IMG/VR virus record: IMGVR_UViG_2671180360_000015
Location: 1 to 20,054 of that record
DNA from: a virus
Lineage: Duplodnaviria; Heunggongvirae; Uroviricota; Caudoviricetes
Length of the DNA: 20,054 nt
Strand: one strand, 5' to 3'
The translations under genes and the position numbers were made by a program. Every line of letters starts with the position of its first letter. The stretch's first letter is position 1. Shown here piece by piece: positions 5,043 through 15,937 of this stretch. The notes under the pieces were generated by a model that saw only the letters and a list, made by a program, of their open reading frames with translations, did no database searches and was not told the origin of the DNA.

Positions 5043-5786
5043 TTAACTGGCTTTCTTTTTCGGGCGTCCACGTTTTGCCGGTGTCACGCTCCGGATCTTA
5101 CGCGGGGCGCGGGTGGCCGCTTTGGGCTGCGGCTCCGGCTTCGGTTTCAGCTCCCGCTCCAGTCGTTCAATCTCTTTTTTGACGCCTGCCTGACAGTCGA
5201 GCTGTGTCGCACGTTGCAGGTGAGCCAGCGCACCGGCGGCATCACCACCGTCACGCAGAAACAGACCGGTGATTTTGTGCAGCTTTGCGCGCACTTCATC
5301 AGGCATGTCAGCCGTGGCGGTCAGTTCAAGGGTGTCCGTCAGCAGGCGGGTATCCACAGACTCACCCGCAGCGTGAGCGCGCATGGCCGCAAGCGCCACC
5401 TCCTCGGTGAACATGTACGGCGGGGTGCGGCGGTGTTTACCCGGCATGGTCAGACCGTACTTCAGGGCATAACGGGCAATCTCCAGCGCACCGGCAATAT
5501 CGCCGGTATCCAGACGCCACAGCATGACCGTCATCAGAATGTCATCCTGTGCACCTTTGCCCTGCTCCAGCACGCCATTCACCCACGGCAACCAGAACGG
5601 CAGCAGTTCGCGTTTTTTCGCGGCCTTCAGCTCTTTTGAATAAATCGCTTTCAGTGTGCGCTGGTCTGCGGCGAGCTTAACCAGCATCTGCTCATAGACA
5701 GTTGCATGTCGCAGCGGGGCGGCTTCCCGCTGCGCGGTCATCGCTGCCGAGACCCGCATCATGTGGCGCTGTGCGGGACTCGTCAT
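5043..5786 (-). CDS. M: Terminase small (endonuclease) subunit gpM
   Basis: 247 aa as in P2 gpM; basic C-terminus; synteny. Confidence 0.85.
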   Translation of the reverse strand: MTSPAQRHMMRVSAAMTAQREAAPLRHATVYEQMLVKLAADQRTLKAIYSKELKAAKKRELLPFWLPWVNGVLEQGKGAQDDILMTVMLWRLDTGDIAGALEIARYALKYGLTMPGKHRRTPPYMFTEEVALAAMRAHAAGESVDTRLLTDTLELTATADMPDEVRAKLHKITGLFLRDGGDAAGALAHLQRATQLDCQAGVKKEIERLERELKPKPEPQPKAATRAPRKIRSVTPAKRGRPKKKAS

Positions 5787-5789
5787 CGG

Positions 5790-6863
5790 TTACGCTCCCG
5801 GCTCTGCGGTCGCTTTAGCCAGTGTGGAGAAATCACCGACCTTAATTTTTTCCACCAGACAACCGGCGGCGTAGTCTTCCACCACGTAATCAATGTTCAT
5901 TGACTCGTAGTTCTCCACGCGGTCGAGTTTCGGGTTTTCCTCAATCACGCGGCGATGGCTGTCATCCATGTAGTAGATGGACAGGTTTTCCAGCTTTGTG
6001 ATGAGCATCGCATCCGCCGGGAAGTACGGGACGCGTACCGCCGGCAGGTTACCGATGCGTTTCTGGCTGATGATGACGTCAGCGGCCAGCATTTCGCTGT
6101 TGTCCTGCTCCTTGTTGACGATGGGAAAATACTTGTCCGCCAGTAGCTGACGTCCCACAATCACCACAAGGTCAGGGTCTTCCTGATACCACGGCTCAAT
6201 CAGGTTGTTGGTCGCATCCATCACCAGTGCGTCAAGGCTGGCATAATCACCGCCCTTACCCACGCGGATAACCTCAGAGGTGGTGTGCCCTTCCTCGTCA
6301 GTGACCTTGCTCATCACGCGCGCCGGGGCTTCATTGCGGTATTTCTGCAGCCAGCCGACCGCCACATCCTGCAGCATCGGATTGCTGCTGCGGTCAGAGG
6401 TTTCGGCACGCCTCACGCCGTTAAAACCGGCCATGATTAAATCAAGGGACTGGCGTTTGATAATGGCGTTACGGACACGGAGCTGGAAATCCTGATAACG
6501 CGCCCACAGGTCCAGCGTTTTGTAGCGGATATAAAAATCGAAGTTAATCTGGTCGCATTCGTACTTGTTTGACGCCAGCTTCGAGAAGTCCTTCGGCTGA
6601 CGCTCGGTGCCACCGGCGGTGTCGCTGGTGCTGGCGATGGAGCCGGTGACACCGATGCCAATTTTTTCCCCTTTCATTTCGCTGACCGGCACAATGTTGA
6701 TGCGGGTCAGAAAGTCAGAGGACTCCTGCATGGTGTTCATCAGGGTCTGGGTGACCGACGGTTCAACGGTGAATTTTTTCGACACATCACCGGCGTCGAT
6801 GCCGTTCAGTTCGGCAACACGGGACAGGTAGGCATTAAATTTAAAGCGGGTTTCCTGGCGCAT
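5790..6863 (-). CDS. N: Major capsid protein gpN
   Basis: 357 aa as in P2 gpN; synteny O-N-M. Confidence 0.9.
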   Translation of the reverse strand: MRQETRFKFNAYLSRVAELNGIDAGDVSKKFTVEPSVTQTLMNTMQESSDFLTRINIVPVSEMKGEKIGIGVTGSIASTSDTAGGTERQPKDFSKLASNKYECDQINFDFYIRYKTLDLWARYQDFQLRVRNAIIKRQSLDLIMAGFNGVRRAETSDRSSNPMLQDVAVGWLQKYRNEAPARVMSKVTDEEGHTTSEVIRVGKGGDYASLDALVMDATNNLIEPWYQEDPDLVVIVGRQLLADKYFPIVNKEQDNSEMLAADVIISQKRIGNLPAVRVPYFPADAMLITKLENLSIYYMDDSHRRVIEENPKLDRVENYESMNIDYVVEDYAAGCLVEKIKVGDFSTLAKATAEPGA

Positions 6864-6921
6864 AGTTTTTCCTGAAATTAAGGGTTAATCGTGAAGGTTT
6901 TCCCGGACTGACTGACGCCGG

Positions 6922-7776
6922 TCAGCAGTTCGTCATCAGGGCGTCACCGCCACCACCGGTGGCCTTGCTGCGGCGCTGCTGGGTCAGACTTTCGGTGTGG
7001 TCGAGACTGTTTTTCAGGCGGGTGAATGCCTGGCTGGTTTCATCCGCCCTGTCAGTCACATCCTGCTTAAGTGCGGAAAAAGCGGTTTCCATCTCAGCGA
7101 GGCGCTGCTCAGTGGCGCTCAGTTTTTCCTGCACATGTTCAGCAACAGCGGTCACCGCTTCATGCACGTCATTCAGACGGGCGTCATCGCTGGCCTGTTT
7201 GCGGCCAAAAATGGACTTCACCTTTTCGGTCAGGGCGGTGAACACGGTTTCAGGCAGGTCTTCAAATTCCAGCTCAACGGGCGTTGCCACTGAAATCAGG
7301 TTTTCAGGGCTTAATTTGAAGCGGTTCAGGGGGTTGTGTTTTGCCGTGCGGCAGAATTCCAGGTATTCCGTGCCGAGGCTTGCCGGGTCATCGGTGACGG
7401 CCAGACCCACCAGATAACATTTGCCGGTATTGGCAAAGTTCGGCTGAATTTCCATTGAGGTATAGACCTTCTGCGCGGCCTTGTTCATCGCGATAAGGTC
7501 ATCGGTCGGGGTGATTTTCGCAAACAGCGCCCATTTGCCTTTCAGCGCCGAATCATCGTCAATCTTTTCGGCCTTCAGTTCGGCCACATCGCCATAACGC
7601 TTAAAAATACCGTCAGGCAGGATGCCGCGCAGATGTTCCAGGTTAATGCGGCAACCATAGACTCGCGGGTCAAAGGTTTCGGCCATTTCCTGAATATCCT
7701 GCGCACTGATGACACGCCCGTCACAGGTGTCACCCTCAACGCCGATACGAAAGAATTTTGAGACTTTTTTTGCCAT
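6922..7776 (-). CDS. O: Capsid scaffolding protein gpO
   Basis: Start at MAKKVSKFFRIGVEGD gives 284 aa as in P2 gpO; the longer ORF to 7842 is probably upstream extension. Confidence 0.85.
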   Translation of the reverse strand: MAKKVSKFFRIGVEGDTCDGRVISAQDIQEMAETFDPRVYGCRINLEHLRGILPDGIFKRYGDVAELKAEKIDDDSALKGKWALFAKITPTDDLIAMNKAAQKVYTSMEIQPNFANTGKCYLVGLAVTDDPASLGTEYLEFCRTAKHNPLNRFKLSPENLISVATPVELEFEDLPETVFTALTEKVKSIFGRKQASDDARLNDVHEAVTAVAEHVQEKLSATEQRLAEMETAFSALKQDVTDRADETSQAFTRLKNSLDHTESLTQQRRSKATGGGGDALMTNC

Positions 7777-7949
7777 TGTCAGGAGTCCTGAATAGTGATT
7801 AGAGGAGTCACATGTCGGCATCAGTTTCCCGACGATGCGCATCCTCCGCCATCAGTCCCGGATGGCTTATCACTGACACAACAGCACCTTAGCGAATCGC
7901 GGGGCGCGACTCAGTAGCCTTGCCGTGTATTCATCACGGCGAGGTATTC
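7777..7949. promoter_or_regulatory. Divergent late promoter region between O (leftward) and P (rightward)
   Basis: 173-bp intergenic region between divergent late operons, as for P2 PO/PP; contains inverted repeat GCCGTG-N7-CACGGC at 7922..7940; no exact TGT-N12-ACA activator dyad found by eye. Confidence 0.5.
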
Positions 7950-9722
7950 ATGACCATCACCACAGACACCACTCTTTTACACGACCCGCGTCGTCAGGCG
8001 GCGCTGCTGTACTGGCAGGGATTTTCCGTGCCGCAGATTGCCGCCATGTTGCAGATGAAACGCCCGACGGTGCAGAGCTGGAAACAGCGCGACGGCTGGG
8101 ACAGCGTTGCCCCCATCAGCCGTGTCGAAATGAGTCTGGAAGCGCGGCTGACCCAGCTCATCATCAAACCGCAGAAAACCGGCGGTGACTTCAAGGAAAT
8201 TGACCTGCTCGGACGCCAGATTGAACGACTGGCACGGGTCAACCGTTACAGTCAGACCGGCAACGAGGCAGACCTTAATCCGAACGTCGCTAACCGCAAC
8301 AAAGGCGGGCGTCGCAAACCGAAAAAGAATTTTTTCAGTGACGAGGCCATCGAAAAGCTGGAGCAGATTTTCTTTGAGCAGTCTTTCGAATATCAGTTGC
8401 ACTGGTATCGCGCAGGGCTTGAGCACCGCATCCGCGATATCCTGAAATCCCGCCAGATTGGCGCGACGTTTTATTTTTCCCGCGAGGCGCTGCTGCGCGC
8501 CCTGAAAACCGGTCATAACCAGATTTTTCTGTCGGCCAGTAAAACGCAGGCGTATGTGTTCCGCGAATACATCATCGCCTTTGCCCGGCTGGTTGACGTT
8601 GACCTGACCGGTGACCCGATTGTCCTGGGCAATAACGGCGCAAAACTGATTTTTCTCGGCACCAACTCCAACACCGCGCAGAGCCATAACGGCGACCTGT
8701 ACGTCGACGAGATTTTCTGGATCCCGAATTTTCAGGTACTGCGTAAGGTGGCATCAGGTATGGCCTCACAGAGTCACCTGCGCTCGACCTATTTCTCCAC
8801 CCCGTCCACACTGGCGCACGACGCCTACCCGTTCTGGTCGGGTGAACTGTTTAACCGGGGACGCGCCAGCGCCGCCGAACGCGTGGAAATCGACGTCAGT
8901 CATAACGCCCTTGCCGGTGGGCTTCTCTGTGCGGACGGCCAGTGGCGGCAGATTGTCACCATTGAGGACGCCCTGAAAGGCGGCTGCACGCTGTTCGACA
9001 TTGAGCAGCTCAAACGTGAAAACAGCGCCGACGATTTTAAAAACCTGTTCATGTGTGAATTTGTTGACGACAAGGCGTCGGTGTTCCCGTTCGAGGAGCT
9101 GCAACGCTGCATGGTCGACACGCTGGAAGAATGGGAAGACTATGCTCCGTTTGCCGCCAATCCGTTCGGCTCACGTCCGGTATGGATTGGTTACGACCCG
9201 TCACACCGTGGCGACAGCGCCGGATGCGTGGTGCTGGCACCGCCGGTGGTGGCCGGTGGCAAATTCAGAATACTTGAGCGTCACCAGTGGAAAGGCATGG
9301 ACTTTGCCACCCAGGCTGAATCCATCCGCAAACTCACCGAAAAATATAACGTCGAATACATCGGTATTGATGCCACCGGCCTCGGTGTCGGCGTGTTCCA
9401 GCTCGTGCGCTCGTTCTATCCCGCCGCGCGCGATATCCGCTACACGCCGGAAATGAAAACTGCAATGGTGCTCAAGGCAAAAGACGTTATCCGCCGTGGC
9501 TGTCTGGAATATGACGTCAGCGCCACCGACATCACCAGCTCGTTCATGGCTATCCGCAAGACCATGACCAGCAGCGGACGCAGCGCCACCTATGAGGCCA
9601 GCCGCAGCGAGGAAGCCAGCCACGCCGACCTCGCCTGGGCGACCATGCACGCCCTGTTAAATGAGCCACTCACCGCCGGTATCAGCACTCCGCTGACATC
9701 CACCATTCTGGAGTTTTACTGA
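7950..9722 (+). CDS. P: Terminase large subunit (ATPase) gpP
   Basis: Start MTITTDTT at 7950 preceded by GAGG gives 590 aa as in P2 gpP; 1-nt stop/start overlap with Q. Confidence 0.9.
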   Translation: MTITTDTTLLHDPRRQAALLYWQGFSVPQIAAMLQMKRPTVQSWKQRDGWDSVAPISRVEMSLEARLTQLIIKPQKTGGDFKEIDLLGRQIERLARVNRYSQTGNEADLNPNVANRNKGGRRKPKKNFFSDEAIEKLEQIFFEQSFEYQLHWYRAGLEHRIRDILKSRQIGATFYFSREALLRALKTGHNQIFLSASKTQAYVFREYIIAFARLVDVDLTGDPIVLGNNGAKLIFLGTNSNTAQSHNGDLYVDEIFWIPNFQVLRKVASGMASQSHLRSTYFSTPSTLAHDAYPFWSGELFNRGRASAAERVEIDVSHNALAGGLLCADGQWRQIVTIEDALKGGCTLFDIEQLKRENSADDFKNLFMCEFVDDKASVFPFEELQRCMVDTLEEWEDYAPFAANPFGSRPVWIGYDPSHRGDSAGCVVLAPPVVAGGKFRILERHQWKGMDFATQAESIRKLTEKYNVEYIGIDATGLGVGVFQLVRSFYPAARDIRYTPEMKTAMVLKAKDVIRRGCLEYDVSATDITSSFMAIRKTMTSSGRSATYEASRSEEASHADLAWATMHALLNEPLTAGISTPLTSTILEFY

Positions 9723-10756
9723 TGAGTAAGAAAAAAGGGAAAACACCGCAGCCAGCGGTGAAAACAATGACTGCCAGCGCCCCGAAAATGGAAGCATTCA
9801 CCTTTGGTGAGCCGGTGCCGGTACTCGACCGCCGTGACATTCTGGATTACGTCGAGTGCATCAGTAACGGCAGATGGTATGAGCCACCGGTCAGCTTTAC
9901 CGGTCTGGCAAAAAGCCTGCGTGCTGCCGTGCATCACAGCTCACCAATTTACGTCAAACGCAATATTCTGGCCTCGACATTTATCCCGCATCCGTGGCTT
10001 TCTCAGCAGGATTTCAGCCGCTTTGTGCTGGATTTTCTGGTGTTCGGTAATGCGTTTCTGGAAAAGCGTTACAGCACTACCGGTAAGGTCATCAGACTGG
10101 AAACCTCACCGGCAAAATATACCCGCCGTGGGGTGGAGGAGGATGTTTACTGGTGGGTGCCGTCCTTCAACGAGCCGACACCTTTCACGCCCGGCTCCGT
10201 GTTTCACCTGCTGGAGCCGGATATTAATCAGGAGCTGTACGGCCTGCCGGAATATCTCAGCGCCCTTAACTCTGCCTGGCTGAATGAGTCGGCCACGCTG
10301 TTCCGCCGCAAGTATTACGAAAACGGCGCACATGCCGGATACATCATGTACGTCACTGATGCCGTGCAGGATCGCAACGATATCGAAATGCTTCGCGAAA
10401 ACATGGTTAAGTCGAAAGGCCGCAATAACTTTAAAAATCTGTTTCTCTATGCCCCACAGGGGAAAGCCGACGGCATTAAAATTATCCCGCTCAGTGAAGT
10501 GGCAACGAAGGACGATTTTTTTAATATCAAAAAAGCCAGCGCCGCTGACCTGCTGGACGCGCACCGCATCCCCTTTCAGTTGATGGGGGGCAAGCCGGAG
10601 AACGTCGGGTCGCTGGGTGATATTGAGAAAGTGGCAAAGGTCTTTGTCCGCAATGAGCTTATCCCGTTACAGGACAGGATCCGCGAGATAAACGGCTGGC
10701 TCGGTCAGGAGGTCATCCGCTTTAAAAACTACTCACTGGACACTGACAACGGCTGA
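9722..10756 (+). CDS. Q: Portal protein gpQ
   Basis: 344 aa as in P2 gpQ; followed by terminator and cos. Confidence 0.9.
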   Translation: MSKKKGKTPQPAVKTMTASAPKMEAFTFGEPVPVLDRRDILDYVECISNGRWYEPPVSFTGLAKSLRAAVHHSSPIYVKRNILASTFIPHPWLSQQDFSRFVLDFLVFGNAFLEKRYSTTGKVIRLETSPAKYTRRGVEEDVYWWVPSFNEPTPFTPGSVFHLLEPDINQELYGLPEYLSALNSAWLNESATLFRRKYYENGAHAGYIMYVTDAVQDRNDIEMLRENMVKSKGRNNFKNLFLYAPQGKADGIKIIPLSEVATKDDFFNIKKASAADLLDAHRIPFQLMGGKPENVGSLGDIEKVAKVFVRNELIPLQDRIREINGWLGQEVIRFKNYSLDTDNG

Positions 10757-10925: not shown

Positions 10926-10944
10926 GTGCTTTCCCCGCCTCGCC
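10926..10944. other. cos: cos site: 19-nt cohesive-end sequence of P2 (window minus strand reads GGCGAGGCGGGGAAAGCAC)
   Basis: Exact reverse complement of the recalled P2 19-nt cohesive end; about 190 bp to the left (10757..10944) also matches the recalled P2 left-end sequence; position between Q and the old/tin-equivalent locus. Confidence 0.8.
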
Positions 10945-11104
10945 CGCCCGCTTCATGGGGCGGTTTTAATGCAGTTGCATTACCATACAGAAGTACTGCC
11001 ACGTCTGACAATTCATAGCTAGAATGTATAGCATATGTTGCATGCAAAATAATGCATATAAAGAATGCTTTTCACTCAATACTTCATCATACGATTTTGT
11101 TGGC

Positions 11105-11887
11105 TCATTTTAGAAGCCCTATTATAGCTGCAATCATACTTCCTACGCCGCCGACTGCTGCGAAAAAAGTAGCCCAAAACATTTTCTTCTGAGTACTCAA
11201 ATTCTCTCTGTACCGCACCTCATCTTTATTGAATGTAGATATTGTGTTCAGTGCCTTTCCTGTTGGCCTAAATCCACTACTTGTTTCAACAAGATCTCCA
11301 TTCTGAACAAGAGAATTCAGGCATAAACGAAGCTCTTTACGCATCCTGTTTTTATCGTCATGGTATACCCATAAACTACCAGCGACTTCGGTCATTATTG
11401 AAAACTCACTAAACACAGTTTGAGCATCCCATTCACGATACATTCTTATAATCGTTGAGAGAACAAACATCACATCAGTTATTTCTTTTTTTTGCTGTCG
11501 ATAAATATATTTTTCACGACTAAACTTTATATTTTCATAATTAGACTTTACTCTAAAGAACAACTCCCTTAAAAATGTTAAATCATTTAAAGAGTTAAAT
11601 CGCAACTCATGCGCACGGTAGTAGTAAACACCAAAAAAAGAATCAGGCGTAACCTCAGAAATATCCAAGCATGAACTTATATGAAATCTACGCTCCTCAT
11701 CATCCCATTTAAAAGCCTTTATCTTCCCATCAACCAAACAGTCAAAGAGGTATTCTGTATCATTTTTATCTTTAATATATACAGAGTACATATCATACTT
11801 AATCGCGTTTTCATATAACAAACTAATACGGCCATCATCTGGCGTTCTTTTCTTATCAAACTTCTTAAGTTGGTTTATAATTTTCAT
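11105..11887 (-). CDS. Hypothetical protein, 260 aa, soluble N-terminal domain with a single C-terminal TM anchor; candidate defence effector
   Basis: Long ORF in AT-rich DNA; C-terminal hydrophobic segment MFWATFFAAVGGVGSMIAAIIGLLK; no recognisable motif; weak SD. Confidence 0.65.
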   Translation of the reverse strand: MKIINQLKKFDKKRTPDDGRISLLYENAIKYDMYSVYIKDKNDTEYLFDCLVDGKIKAFKWDDEERRFHISSCLDISEVTPDSFFGVYYYRAHELRFNSLNDLTFLRELFFRVKSNYENIKFSREKYIYRQQKKEITDVMFVLSTIIRMYREWDAQTVFSEFSIMTEVAGSLWVYHDDKNRMRKELRLCLNSLVQNGDLVETSSGFRPTGKALNTISTFNKDEVRYRENLSTQKKMFWATFFAAVGGVGSMIAAIIGLLK

Positions 11888-11945
11888 AACATTCTCGCAG
11901 TGCTAATCTCATACGCAACAAATCTCGGTTCTGCCGCTCTAATAG

Positions 11946-11988
11946 TCAAAAAATGCCGACACCCAATTAAATATTCAGCGTCGGCATT
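11946..11988 (-). terminator. Terminator-like hairpin between the two cassette genes
   Basis: On the minus strand AATGCCGAC / GTCGGCATT 9-bp stem with 19-nt loop followed by a T-run, 9 nt after the upstream gene stop; loop is long for a canonical terminator. Confidence 0.35.
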
Positions 11989-11996
11989 GTAAGATA

Positions 11997-12770
11997 TCAA
12001 TTATCTATGATTGATATCACCTTACCAGTTTTTATATCAACACGCGCAGCAATCGTCTGTTTCACCACTCCGCCATAAGCATTAGTTCCGCGAAACGTGG
12101 TTTTCACAATGGCATGCGGGTCTTTATTCAAAACCAGATGATATACCGTTGATACATGTTTATAAGATGAATCATCGTTCATATTATCTTTAATTAGTTT
12201 TTCCAATGGACGATAAGAACCATCCCAACCACTAAAATTACTCTGAAATGTATCAAGATTGATTTTATTGTTTAGTGAATTCGGGTCATTTTCATAATCA
12301 TTAAAGCACCACCCAAGAACATCACCGAGTTTCAACTCATCATCTTTGGTAAATGTATATTCACTCATGCAGGCATAAAACGCATCTGACGCGGTGGCTG
12401 GAACTTCCTTAAAATCAATGTAACTATTCACAATATCGTGTCGTGTTTTCTTTGACTCGTTCCGATATTCCTTGAGTGTTTTTTCACCATATTCGAATGT
12501 TTTTTGGACTTTATGTTCTGCAACGGTTGATGTTTCAGTTTTATCAACTGGCTGGCTTTTTTCTGTTGGATAGAGTATTGAACCAATTATGCTCAATACA
12601 AAACCTCCTCCGAGATAAACCGCACTTGCACGTTTGCGGTTTGGCATTCGCACCAGTGATGGCTTGATTAACCCGATGAAGAAAGCAACGAAAAAAGCGA
12701 GTGATAGAAAAGCGATTATAGTATCCATAGCTATCCTTTTTGCATCATCCACATAAAAAATCGACCTCAT
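11997..12770 (-). CDS. Hypothetical membrane protein, 257 aa (243 aa from the start at 12728); two N-terminal TM helices and a ~180-aa C-terminal domain predicted to be periplasmic
   Basis: AT-rich ORF; TM1 TIIAFLSLAFFVAFFIGLI, basic loop RMPNRKRAS, TM2 AVYLGGGFVLSIIGSILY; the ATG at 12728 has the better SD (AAAGGAtagctATG). Confidence 0.65.
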   Translation of the reverse strand: MRSIFYVDDAKRIAMDTIIAFLSLAFFVAFFIGLIKPSLVRMPNRKRASAVYLGGGFVLSIIGSILYPTEKSQPVDKTETSTVAEHKVQKTFEYGEKTLKEYRNESKKTRHDIVNSYIDFKEVPATASDAFYACMSEYTFTKDDELKLGDVLGWCFNDYENDPNSLNNKINLDTFQSNFSGWDGSYRPLEKLIKDNMNDDSSYKHVSTVYHLVLNKDPHAIVKTTFRGTNAYGGVVKQTIAARVDIKTGKVISIIDN

Positions 12771-13157
12771 GTTAGCAACAGGATGCTTACTTTTGAATAT
12801 TTGTAAGTTGTTAGCTCTCCAACCTAACTCCTTTCAACCGTCAAAAACCGGCACCAACGCAGTAAAAATATGTCTGTCAACTAACGCCTCGCTACGCTCG
12901 TTGTTCAACCCCGCCAGCCCTGAAAACAAGTTTCACGACTGGCGGCGTTCTCTATCGTCTTCGTGGTGGTGGCGCAACTCTGGACTGACCGATATAGTTA
13001 AGCCGCCCGTAATTATCCCGAACTATTTCGGCACACCCGACCAGCTCATCGGGCGTCAGATTTTCGTTGACCATAATCCGCTGTAAACGCTGAACAATAG
13101 CCATCAGCTTGATATTTTTAGTTTTATGGTGCGGTATCTCGCCTGGTATTCTGTGCA

Positions 13158-13613
13158 TTATCCAAGCCACCCGTTTTGCTTTGCACGCTCCACCTGTTCA
13201 TCTGAATAGTTCCATATCCCATCCGCAGCAACCACTGCCCCGCCAGACAGCCCCGTCTCTGGTTCATACATAACAGCAAGGCCGAGCTGATGCATAATTT
13301 CATGATTAATTCTGAATACCAGACCACGTTCACTAAGTTCTTTCCAGTTCACAATCTTATATGCGCCCGTATTAAGCAGCTCAATACTTAGCAAGACATA
13401 ATCTTCCAGCCAGTCTGACAGGTCAGTAACATCTGTTATCCGGGCTTCAACCTTTCGCCCCGTAAACACACCCTGCACCCATTCATGCAAAATCAACGTG
13501 TCCCCGCGCTCATAATTACGGTCATTTTTCCGAAACTCTGCGCGTTTTTTTCCTTCCAGTACAAGGTCGAAATATTTTGCGTGCAGCTTTACCTCGTGAA
13601 TTTTTGCCATCAT
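13158..13613 (-). CDS. ASCH-like / DUF3850-type protein with C-terminal extension (151 aa)
   Basis: MAKIHEVKLHAKYFDLVLEGKKRAEFRKNDRNYERGDTLILHEW resembles the DUF3850/ASCH signature; start ATG overlaps the gpA stop (ATGA); occupies the P2 orf91 position. Confidence 0.7.
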   Translation of the reverse strand: MMAKIHEVKLHAKYFDLVLEGKKRAEFRKNDRNYERGDTLILHEWVQGVFTGRKVEARITDVTDLSDWLEDYVLLSIELLNTGAYKIVNWKELSERGLVFRINHEIMHQLGLAVMYEPETGLSGGAVVAADGIWNYSDEQVERAKQNGWLG

Positions 13614-15937
13614 GTCCACTCCATTACTGTTGAGAATCCCGGCCACTCATCAGCGACCGGATACGTGAATTTTTTCCCGTCATAATTTACGGTCGCGCCA
13701 CGCACCAGCGCCTCAAGCTCCCATCGTTGCGGCCTGATACCGTTCTGAGCGAGGTCAACGCGGATACGGGTAATTTGCAATCGTTCTGACCGGGTCAGTC
13801 TGGCCGATGGCGCTATTTCATGCGGTTTTAACGGGTTTCCGTTTCTTTGCTGACGGTTTGGTCTTCTCAGACCGTGTTTTAATGCGCTTCTGAGCGCCCT
13901 CACGACCTCCGGGTCATTCCATTCGATAACACCGTCATCAACCAGATTAAGCACTGCTGCGGCGTGCTCAGAAGGTGTGGGAGCCGGTAACGAAGCATCA
14001 CCACCGGTGAGCTTTCCACAGTTATTGACAGGACTCCGAGGCGCGGCGATGCCGCTTTTTAAAGTCAAAGGCTCAACGACCGGAACTTTCGGAACAATGC
14101 GCCAGTCCGTCGTTCTGGTGATATGAATATGACGCGCGCCGAGATGCGGCGCGTAAATGCCGACCACTCTCTCGACTTCTTCCTCGTACTCGTTAACGTC
14201 ATCCGACGGGCTACGGGCGACCCTGACAGTCTGACAATCGCGCGGGACATTTGCCCCACCCTGCGCGCTGATATACAACGCAAAATCACCACTGTCTGCG
14301 GCGGCGCGTGCAGCCTCGACGCGCTCGTCAAACTCATCAGCAATGCTGACGCCGCGCGGCAATTTGCGTAGTTCACGGTAAGCCCCCATTGTCGGCAGGC
14401 CAACCGTTTTAAATTGCGGGATGCGCCACGTTGACGCCCATGCGGTAACAGCCGCTGCAGTGTCTTTCAGCGGCCTGCCGGTGTCGTTATCGAGCTGACC
14501 ATCCAGTGCATAGCCGTCGATGTTTTTTGAAATGTATTTCGCGATATATCCCGCAGCACCGCCCCGGTTAAGGTGTTTTGCCTGAAAACGGTTTCGCGCG
14601 GCTCCTCTTTCGTCGCCATCCTCTTTGAGCGCATAGCGACGCATGATTTCGATAATCTGGTTACGCTGGCGTGAATTACAAAAAAGCATCATATGCCAGT
14701 GCGGCGTTCCGTCGTGGTGTGGCTCGACGACACGCAAACCGTAGACCTGTAAATCATTATCCTTGAATGCCGTGCGCATCAGGCTCCAGATACGGCAGAG
14801 ATAACGCTGCGCATCCTTTGGATTAAATGCCTCATCGTTCCAGCCGTGATTAAGCTGCACGGTTTTACTTTCGCCTTTTCCTACCTGACGTGTCGGGTGA
14901 TACTTTGACGGCGCGGTCAGCGTGATAAACATCCCCACATCACCCTCTGCAGCGGCGTAACGCTCAATACCGGCAATGGTGTTCATCAGCTCCATCCGGC
15001 GAATTTCAGGATTAGAAATACTGCCCATCACCTTACTGATAAGGTCGATGCGCTCGCCGGTTTCCCTGTTTTCAAGGTCACACGATTTAAGAAATTCCAG
15101 ATTTGCCTGGCGGCGCGCACGCACATCACGAATGGCGTGTTTACTGGCATAAGGAGAACGGTCTTTATTGACCTCCCCGACAGCTATCAGTAACGCTTCA
15201 TGCCAGCGCATACGCTGGCCTTTAAGCTGACTAATCCACCACTCATCGTTAAACAGGCGGGCAATGGCAGAATATGCCTGCCTCGTGGTCATCTGTCCTT
15301 TACGGTATTTTTTCCAGTAGAGCGGGGAAATATTGAAAGCACGTGCAGCGCCAGCAACATGACCATACAGATGTGCCTGCGCCTCATCCGTAAACAGCGA
15401 TTCTTTTTCACCATGCGCATCAACCCATGCATCGCAGAGTTCCTCATACATCATGAAAAGCTGCGATGAGATACGGGCGGCAAACTTTTTCAGCTCCTTG
15501 TCATTCATTCCAGGCAGGCGCGCATAGTGGTCACGCTCTGCCAGAAACAGCAACGACGCGTCGGTGTTCATTTCATGGCGCTGATTCACGCGCTCAATGC
15601 GCGGCCATAAACGACGCTGAAAAGTGGATGTGAGGAAATAAAACCCGTGTACCGGACTTTTATTGCGCCGGATGTAGTCATAGCGTGAAGTAAACAGCGA
15701 GCGCAAAAAGTAAGGCAGGCGGTTAATCGTGGATAAAACACCTTGCACCTGACGCATCTCGTCACGTGTAAGGGGTCTTTCGCGCCCGACAGCCTCGCGT
15801 GGCGCGTTCCATGCATAAGCACCAGTAAACGCCTTACCGGTGCCTGCGGCAAATGCTGACGGAGGGACAAAACGCCCGGAGGCTTTAACGGCCATATGAG
15901 CCAAAAGCCTCAGAACAACGCTTGCTGAGTTGCTCAA
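13610..15937 (-). CDS. A: Replication initiation endonuclease gpA (rolling-circle initiator)
   Basis: HUH motif in EPHHDGTPHWHMMLF; start at MAVKASG (15895) would give 761 aa, the recalled P2 gpA length; longest ORF is 775 aa. Confidence 0.9.
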   Translation of the reverse strand: MSNSASVVLRLLAHMAVKASGRFVPPSAFAAGTGKAFTGAYAWNAPREAVGRERPLTRDEMRQVQGVLSTINRLPYFLRSLFTSRYDYIRRNKSPVHGFYFLTSTFQRRLWPRIERVNQRHEMNTDASLLFLAERDHYARLPGMNDKELKKFAARISSQLFMMYEELCDAWVDAHGEKESLFTDEAQAHLYGHVAGAARAFNISPLYWKKYRKGQMTTRQAYSAIARLFNDEWWISQLKGQRMRWHEALLIAVGEVNKDRSPYASKHAIRDVRARRQANLEFLKSCDLENRETGERIDLISKVMGSISNPEIRRMELMNTIAGIERYAAAEGDVGMFITLTAPSKYHPTRQVGKGESKTVQLNHGWNDEAFNPKDAQRYLCRIWSLMRTAFKDNDLQVYGLRVVEPHHDGTPHWHMMLFCNSRQRNQIIEIMRRYALKEDGDERGAARNRFQAKHLNRGGAAGYIAKYISKNIDGYALDGQLDNDTGRPLKDTAAAVTAWASTWRIPQFKTVGLPTMGAYRELRKLPRGVSIADEFDERVEAARAAADSGDFALYISAQGGANVPRDCQTVRVARSPSDDVNEYEEEVERVVGIYAPHLGARHIHITRTTDWRIVPKVPVVEPLTLKSGIAAPRSPVNNCGKLTGGDASLPAPTPSEHAAAVLNLVDDGVIEWNDPEVVRALRSALKHGLRRPNRQQRNGNPLKPHEIAPSARLTRSERLQITRIRVDLAQNGIRPQRWELEALVRGATVNYDGKKFTYPVADEWPGFSTVMEWT

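Follow-up and report, generated by a model that had tools for sequence, protein, structure and literature searches.

Location of a cargo gene beside cos in a P2-like prophage

We analysed a stretch of 20,054 nucleotides (positions 1 to 20,054 of the IMG/VR virus record IMGVR_UViG_2671180360_000015; hereafter the window), which is a P2-like (Peduovirus) prophage of Escherichia coli, and examined a gene at positions 11105-11887 that encodes a 260-amino-acid protein predicted to be held in the membrane by its C-terminus. On our best reading, this is a cargo ('moron') gene that was acquired horizontally, stands alone and occupies the end of the gpA-Q hotspot nearest to cos. The gene was found on the minus strand, with an ATG start and an end coordinate that takes in the stop codon; translation of the same interval on the plus strand was full of stops. 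The gene and the landmarks that define its position are the following.

11105-11887, minus strand: gene of the 260-amino-acid, predicted tail-anchored protein (open reading frame list and translation; stop codon at 11105-11107)
10926-10944, minus strand: 19-mer GGCGAGGCGGGGAAAGCAC, which we take to be P2 cos (exact match, 0 expected by chance)
9722-10756, plus strand: portal protein gpQ, which bounds the hotspot on one side (Pfam Phage_portal; RefSeq annotation of near-identical loci)
13610-15937, minus strand: replication protein gpA, which bounds the hotspot on the opposite side (Pfam Phage_GPA, 4e-123; PHROGs)

The gene is the last cargo gene before cos, its stop codon lying 160 bp from the cos 19-mer. 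The guanine-plus-cytosine (GC) content was 33-38% from about position 11000 to 12800, compared with 55-58% in the rest of the phage. Near-identical loci were found in Peduovirus records. Among 5426 complete E. coli genomes, the whole 2.4-kb cargo region was present at 98-99.6% identity in 6, including APEC O78 and IHE3034, whereas the flanking hotspot sequence matched 2159. Its location between gpA and Q and next to cos, its patchy presence and its foreign base composition mark the gene as hotspot cargo.

The gpA-Q 'old/tin' hotspot of P2 is a validated reservoir of anti-phage systems and also holds partition systems and toxins; supplementary tables give loci of the present kind merely as 'DUF3850/ASCH + hypothetical + hypothetical + hypothetical' (Rousset et al. 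2022, PMC9122126). The cargo genes described there share with the 260-residue protein gene the location by cos, the low-GC mosaic and, in sister prophages, similar neighbours (retron, PD-T4-4 and PDC candidates). The protein is none of the systems validated in that hotspot, namely old, tin, DUF4238, 3HP, DprA-PRTase and TIR plus a transmembrane (TM) segment (PMC9122126).

We investigated whether the gene upstream belongs with it. Two features bear on this point.

11997-12770, minus strand: gene of an 'Orf97-like' protein of 243/257 residues (phrog_3403), with two TM helices near the N-terminus, and a domain of ~175 residues at the C-terminus that is predicted to be periplasmic
11948-11988, minus strand: intrinsic-terminator-like hairpin AUGCCGACGC...GGUGUCGGCAU followed by U6, between the Orf97-like and 260-residue protein genes (inverted repeat I4)

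The topology of the Orf97-like protein was deduced from the basic loop MPNRKRAS between its TM helices, and searches of Pfam, NCBIfam and PADLOC returned no match to it. The intergenic RNA was predicted to fold at -31.9 kcal/mol (z -2.56); the hairpin had escaped the terminator consensus scan because its loop exceeds 8 nt.

The original prediction had placed the 260-residue protein gene in a cassette with a partner. In such a two-gene system the Orf97-like protein would act as a sensor or antitoxin-like partner and the 260-residue protein as the effector. The two genes are adjacent and co-oriented and share one low-GC island, and an adjacent, co-oriented pair was also found in Enterobacter, Cronobacter and Klebsiella P2/186-like prophages, with 74-79% identity for the Orf97-like protein and 55-60% for the 260-residue protein. 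However, the Orf97-like gene was detected in 84 E. coli genomes and the 260-residue protein gene in 6, and elsewhere unrelated genes follow the Orf97-like gene, encoding a 232-residue TM protein (in phage 9W), a 311-residue PDC-S64-like protein with a Cys-rich C-terminal tail, or proteins of 218, 198 and 217 residues. Homologues of the 260-residue protein were also found without an Orf97-like gene: in an E. coli genome in which a retron precedes it (locus L009, see below), in Pantoea (L013), where only a DinI-like gene precedes it, and in another E. coli prophage (L024), where it was the sole cargo found between gpA and the portal gene. In Citrobacter (L025) an intact homologue lies next to a frameshifted Orf97, followed by PD-T4-4 A+B. 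None of nine distinct contexts of distant homologues held an Orf97-like gene (tblastn of L014-L021; gene tables of L026-L035). The terminator hairpin stands between the two genes, and the soluble domains of their products are predicted to lie on opposite sides of the membrane. A functional cassette is thus highly improbable, although the co-inheritance in the Enterobacter, Cronobacter and Klebsiella prophages leaves a small probability for a facultative relationship.

Given the genome counts, the lone homologues and the terminator, the Orf97-like gene is not an obligate partner and the 260-residue protein gene stands alone. Genes that adjoin in the gpA-Q hotspot hence need not form a functional pair, a point of importance for guilt-by-association predictions. 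The Orf97-like gene itself is semi-constant, with a highly variable slot behind it that held at least six unrelated genes (in the window, L002, L003 and L010-L012). Its product may act independently as an exclusion-type membrane protein, or the gene may be a landmark for cassette exchange.

Membrane topology, domain architecture and family

A Kyte-Doolittle scan (19-residue window, cut-off 1.4) detected a sole hydrophobic stretch in the 260-residue protein, at residues 236-260, with a peak of 2.2 and reaching the very end of the chain. Because the N-terminus is hydrophilic, no signal peptide is predicted. Since basic residues (R225, R227, K234 and K235) stand just ahead of the TM helix, the bulk of the protein is predicted by the positive-inside rule to be cytoplasmic. 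With one C-terminal TM helix, no signal peptide and a predicted cytoplasmic remainder, the protein has the features of a tail-anchored protein with a large cytoplasmic domain, in agreement with the original prediction. The peptides quoted in the original description (FGVYYYRAHELRF, IIRMYREWDAQ and FWATFFAAVGGVGSMIAAIIGLLK) are all present, and the protein, whose N-terminal part had been described as charged and aromatic-rich, contains 77 charged residues of 260 (~30%; D19, E17, K23, R18) and 37 aromatic ones (~14%; F19, W4, Y14).

Inspection of the TM helix revealed three small-xxx-small-xxx-small ladders (A239/A243/G247, G246/S250/A254 and G249/A253/G257), a pattern that appears typical of tightly packed helix oligomers. 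Polar positions in the helix are conserved, namely T240 and position 250, which is Gln in the consensus (40-60% of members) and Ser here. By a strict cut-off, the TM helix lies at the very C-terminus in 95 of 133 full-length distant members, and most of the others have it a few tens of residues earlier. Close homologues also keep the hydrophobic C-terminal segment.

Structure prediction was carried out with AlphaFold (AF2). The model of the protein from its close family had a mean predicted local distance difference test (pLDDT) score of 84, and a separate model of residues 1-104 from 51 diverse sequences had a pLDDT of 93 and a predicted template modelling score of 0.83. The following layout, all on the minus strand, was obtained.

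Residues 1-104 (11576-11887): N-terminal helix and six-stranded small beta-barrel (SH3/Sm-like), net acidic
Residues 105-152 (11432-11575): two long helices (AF2 secondary structure, conservation, charge)
Residues 153-209 (11261-11431): predicted winged-helix core, with a helix at 161-173, a turn with near-invariant W173 and H176, a helix at 179-196 and a beta-hairpin wing at 199-208
Residues 210-235 (11183-11260): conserved juxtamembrane helix, consensus tGKAl.TL..YEeeERRH......Q (column conservation in 110 diverse members, AF2)
Residues 236-260 (11108-11182): single C-terminal TM helix MFWATFFAAVGGVGSMIAAIIGLLK (hydropathy, family scan, conservation)

In the model the SH3/Sm-like barrel spans residues ~30-97. 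The second of the two long helices (residues 124-152, basic, with the motif FSREKYIYRQQKKEITD) is probably the first helix of the winged-helix domain, which would then extend over residues ~124-209. The modelled helix-turn-helix (HTH), the beta-hairpin wing and the likeness to known winged-helix structures identify this region as a predicted winged-helix domain; its matches in the fold search included MarR/PadR as well as kleisin/cullin. AF2 predicted one unbroken helix over residues 210-259, from the wing into the membrane. Conservation among the 110 diverse members peaked at the HTH turn (W173, H176), at the recognition-helix core and wing (L.L.LdSLv.SGdL...Y..tGKAl.TL) and at the juxtamembrane stretch YEeeERRH......Q, making the winged-helix domain and the juxtamembrane helix the two best-conserved regions.

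Across the family, barrel and winged helix both carry a net negative charge (mean -1.1 for the winged helix) and the flanking helices are basic, so DNA binding by the winged helix is possible but not indicated. Basic residues in helix 179-187 are conserved in the close clade only.

The fold had originally been described as unknown, with no catalytic motif recognised. The latter was borne out, as Pfam, NCBIfam, PADLOC, PDB sequences and the fold searches yielded no catalytic motif or domain. The former stood in part: the remote-homology and structure searches that had been proposed returned no relative in Pfam, NCBIfam, PADLOC or PDB sequences, but a fold, SH3/Sm-like barrel plus winged helix, could now be assigned from the models. 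The best PADLOC-DB 2.0.0 match was DruD (E 0.021 over 45 residues, not significant), and Pfam and PADLOC scans of the 110 diverse members added only scattered PADLOC matches at E > 1e-3. When narrow and broad profiles were run against PDB sequences, the best matches, a TPR-CHAT fragment (E 0.099) and an Nse1 winged helix (E 0.3), did not amount to a relative. The only family assignment was phrog_7611, of unknown function (PHROG match 5e-164), and a literature search for the protein (by accession) and for its architecture found no mention of either.

We compared the predicted architecture with known regulators. The combination of a barrel and a winged helix is shared with the winged helix-turn-helix (wHTH)-WYL regulators BrxR, CapW, PafBC and DriD; a WYL-regulator identity was rejected, because the protein lacks an N-terminal wHTH followed by a Pfam WYL domain. 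With CRP/FNR regulators it shares the order of an N-terminal beta domain, a long helix and a C-terminal winged HTH, and PrfA, CAP and NtcA were the top Foldseek matches (E about 0.02-0.1, TM-scores 0.2-0.3). Such an identity was likewise rejected on these weak scores and the lack of a match to Pfam cNMP_binding (cyclic nucleotide monophosphate binding); CRP/FNR proteins have an eight-stranded nucleotide-binding jelly roll, in contrast to the six-stranded SH3/Sm-like barrel predicted here, and the 260-residue protein is predicted to be membrane-anchored. ToxR/CadC-type factors also tether a cytoplasmic winged helix by one inner-membrane TM helix. In those proteins an OmpR-type winged helix is N-terminal and a periplasmic sensor follows the TM helix, whereas the 260-residue protein has one residue after the TM helix and no OmpR-family match.

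To define the family, a word-indexed search was carried out, which returned 30 clusters at 45-99% identity, all from Enterobacterales; a second search of this type contributed next to nothing. A HMMER profile search with a cut-off of E <= 1e-3 extended the family to 579 representative clusters, of which 176 had E <= 1e-10, nearly all of 250-300 residues, aligning end to end and sharing the same architecture; a scan of genome contigs returned a single locus, in Pantoea. Because of these two sets of clusters and the conserved hydrophobic C-terminus, the 260-residue open reading frame is judged to be a real gene. Judging from the contexts of its members, the family is a widespread, uncharacterised singleton cargo gene of mobile elements in Alpha-, Beta- and Gammaproteobacteria, frequently but not always found among defence modules. 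In the majority of distant members the N-terminal part contains the motif CP..IPRSGE.g..V(D/N)C(Y/F), whose two conserved cysteines have been lost in the enterobacterial P2 clade (here RTPDDGRISLLYENAIKYDMYSV), and many distant members have a short conserved tail, QAG.(I/L)K.P.L.DF, after the TM helix. The clade of the window thus appears to be a trimmed variant of the family.

Genomic contexts of homologues and candidate function

We examined the genes that surround homologues in other replicons. In E. coli EH01-18-02 (NZ_CP063518.1; L009, 1145-3539) a complete type VI retron was found directly upstream of a 266-residue homologue, consisting of a 51-residue open reading frame, a Cro/C1-type HTH protein and an RT_VI reverse transcriptase (9e-106). 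Type VI retrons comprise an HTH protein, a reverse transcriptase and a small protein of 75-79 residues (PMC7736814). The arrangement occurs in ten complete E. coli genomes of one lineage. A role as a type VI retron accessory or effector was rejected, because the linkage is confined to that one E. coli lineage and the window has no reverse transcriptase.

In Rhizobium rhizogenes a Gabija-like OLD-TOPRIM ATPase and a UvrD helicase lie on one side of the homologue and an XhoI/Eco57I (type II) restriction-modification system on the other. On Klebsiella IncF plasmids an Mrr_cat nuclease gene is adjacent upstream, with Shedu nearby, and a Yersinia plasmid homologue has HEPN and DUF2971 neighbours. 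Other homologues were found beside ccdAB, parA/sopAB, RelE/ParE-type or YafO-type toxin-antitoxin genes, resolvases, an antirepressor and integrases. Among the contexts of relatives examined, no conserved partner gene was detected.

The spacing at the Mrr_cat gene differed between loci. A distant homologue (~30% identity) begins 17 bp after the gene of a 287-residue Mrr_cat-type 'restriction endonuclease' by metagenome gene calls (L018/L019, 4121-5837), and the gap from a 287-residue Mrr_cat-type gene to the homologue is 65 bp by RefSeq annotation in L027 (3055-4771). The Klebsiella Mrr_cat gene and the homologue may form an operon in that lineage, a hint that nucleases can take on members of the family as partners.

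The neighbouring type VI retron, PD-T4-4, Gabija-like, restriction-modification, Mrr_cat/Shedu and HEPN/DUF2971 genes make the family a candidate for defence, a role inferred from this genomic neighbourhood. We tentatively propose that the 260-residue protein is a putative one-protein phage- or mobile-element-exclusion factor, or abortive-infection sensor-effector. Expressed from the prophage, it would be tail-anchored in the inner membrane, where the barrel/winged-helix module would recognise an infection cue (a phage protein, nucleic acid or small ligand) at the inner membrane face. The juxtamembrane helix would transmit the signal from this module to the TM helix, the small-residue-rich TM helices would repack into a leaky oligomer, and the membrane would be permeabilised or depolarised, so that infection aborts. 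Such a membrane-disrupting mechanism is plausible, judging from the neighbourhood and the TM features only. The conserved juxtamembrane helix, winged helix and polar TM positions would not be needed by a passive anchor.

Known abortive-infection effectors with TM segments include the Cap15-type beta-barrel-TM proteins of CBASS, the TM effectors of Pycsar, the 2TM effector of retron Ec48 and the AC1 TIR proteins with 1TM or 2TM. The 260-residue protein resembles them in coupling a soluble domain to a TM segment and in being encoded in a defence hotspot, and its small barrel is as in Cap15. It differs in having no sequence match to them, a single TM helix at the extreme C-terminus and an additional predicted winged helix, and in that its gene occurs alone, without a signal-generating enzyme.

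Several observations weigh against a defence role. Guilt by association is weak evidence, since the hotspot carries partition systems and toxins as well, and several plasmid homologues adjoin toxin-antitoxin, partition or recombinase genes and not defence genes. PADLOC scans revealed no homology to validated defence proteins or TM effectors, and a tblastn search of 50,697 deposited phage genomes gave no protein-level match, although a PHROG exists. The acidity of the winged-helix and barrel domains across the family leaves nucleic-acid sensing unsupported, and one TM helix may do no more than anchor the protein. Finally, the promoter scan detected no convincing sigma-70 promoter for the gene, which, together with the upstream terminator, makes its expression in the lysogen putative.

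The location and neighbourhood evidence applies equally to a non-lethal superinfection exclusion, in which a tethered winged-helix/barrel module would block genome entry or establishment and the cell would survive; its targets would be incoming DNA, ejected pilot or tape-measure proteins or a host entry factor, and the TM helix would be an anchor or oligomerisation device. Prophage exclusion proteins are commonly small inner-membrane proteins, and a tail-anchored protein with its whole mass at the predicted cytoplasmic face would suit this role, as would a winged helix, a fold that mediates both DNA and protein binding (compare the MarR/PadR and kleisin/cullin matches). We nevertheless consider it unlikely: the winged helix is net acidic, with a basic putative recognition helix in the close clade only, the conserved polar TM residues suggest more than anchoring, and PHROGs and PADLOC gave no similarity to known Sie/Imm/gp15-type proteins.

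A function outside defence would make the protein a membrane-tethered regulator or a DNA or protein tether that serves the element, through maintenance or segregation, regulator sequestration at the membrane or tuning of lysis and lysogeny, comparable to membrane-bound one-component regulators or to membrane DNA organisers of the phi29 p16.7 type. The order of barrel, long helix and winged helix loosely recalls one-component regulators, and the top Foldseek matches were of the CRP/FNR family, albeit at E about 0.02. Several plasmid homologues lie in maintenance regions near sopAB/parA, ccdAB and resolvase genes, and the P2 hotspot is itself home to partition systems. On the other hand, the gene is rare, patchy cargo (6/5426 E. 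coli genomes) and not backbone, no partner partition gene accompanies it in prophages, there was no match to a cNMP-binding or known regulator family, and the winged helix is acidic. This explanation, too, appears improbable. An identity as a holin or lysis protein was rejected on the wrong locus and the large cytoplasmic domain.

Returning to the exclusion or abortive-infection proposal, the protein would at most act in the manner of abortive-infection TM effectors or prophage exclusion proteins, and it belongs to none of the groups with which it was compared. The gene is of a known kind, namely hotspot cargo and a likely competition gene, in an undescribed architecture and family. It is possible, but rather doubtful, that the family (at least 579 clusters at 50% identity) constitutes a new, widespread single-gene class of anti-phage or anti-mobile-element systems built on tail-anchored barrel/winged-helix sensors, present on P2-like prophages, on plasmids of IncF and other types and in chromosomal defence islands of Proteobacteria, in which one polypeptide couples cytoplasmic cue recognition directly to a single-helix membrane effector. 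If phage exclusion is its role, the family would be a compact, self-contained 0.8-kb system absent from Pfam, NCBIfam and PADLOC that could be added to defence-annotation tools, and it would provide a case of a cytoplasmic sensor whose output is a single C-terminal helix. Should the gene prove not to serve defence, the analysis still assigns domains and a defined family to a 'hypothetical protein' that recurs in P2-like prophages and on enterobacterial plasmids.

Other genes of the window and a structured junction element

At positions above cos, the minus strand carries in order of rising coordinates the 260-residue protein gene, the 243/257-residue two-TM gene, a 72-residue gene, ASCH/DUF3850, gpA, DUF5405 and cox; the C repressor and integrase genes of the window are on the plus strand. 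The remaining features are listed below.

5043-7842, minus strand: small terminase, major capsid and scaffold genes
7920-9722, plus strand: large terminase
12880-12949, minus strand: conserved structured 'junction' element of ~70 nt, at hotspot cassette boundaries and at the transition between GC-rich and low-GC sequence, upstream of the Orf97-like gene
12952-13170, minus strand: 72-residue gene
13158-13646, minus strand: ASCH/DUF3850 backbone gene (Pfam DUF3850/ASCH; PHROGs)

The ASCH/DUF3850 gene encodes an ASCH/DUF3850 domain fused to DUF7415, has a PHROG relative (phrog_986) annotated as 'RNA-binding protein' and is kept beside the hotspot in many P2-like prophages.

The junction element was also found in loci L004-L006 (at ~4924), L007 (~4937), L008 (~234), L009 (~2668), L010 (~2814 and 3786), L011 (~2814 and 4504), L012 (~2814), L022 (1282-1368) and L025 (3894-3980), some loci thus carrying two copies. 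In other prophages it separates either Orf97 or the retron reverse transcriptase gene from the homologue, or stands ahead of other cargo. It contains a 17-bp hairpin, AACGCCGCCAG...GAAACTTGYTTTCAG...CTGGCGGGGTT, followed by a nearly invariant GTTGAACAAYGAG-N-CGAGGCGTTAG. Compensatory changes on both sides were observed at 7 of the 23 predicted pairs, 6 of them in the 17-bp hairpin. An Rfam search of the window gave nothing at the gathering score, the junction element included. The AAC...GTT-flanked hairpin and the GTTGAAC (GTTRRRY-like) motif are faintly similar to integron attC sites, but no integron integrase accompanies the element. The element may serve as a site of recombination or cassette exchange, or it may have a regulatory or 3'-end function.

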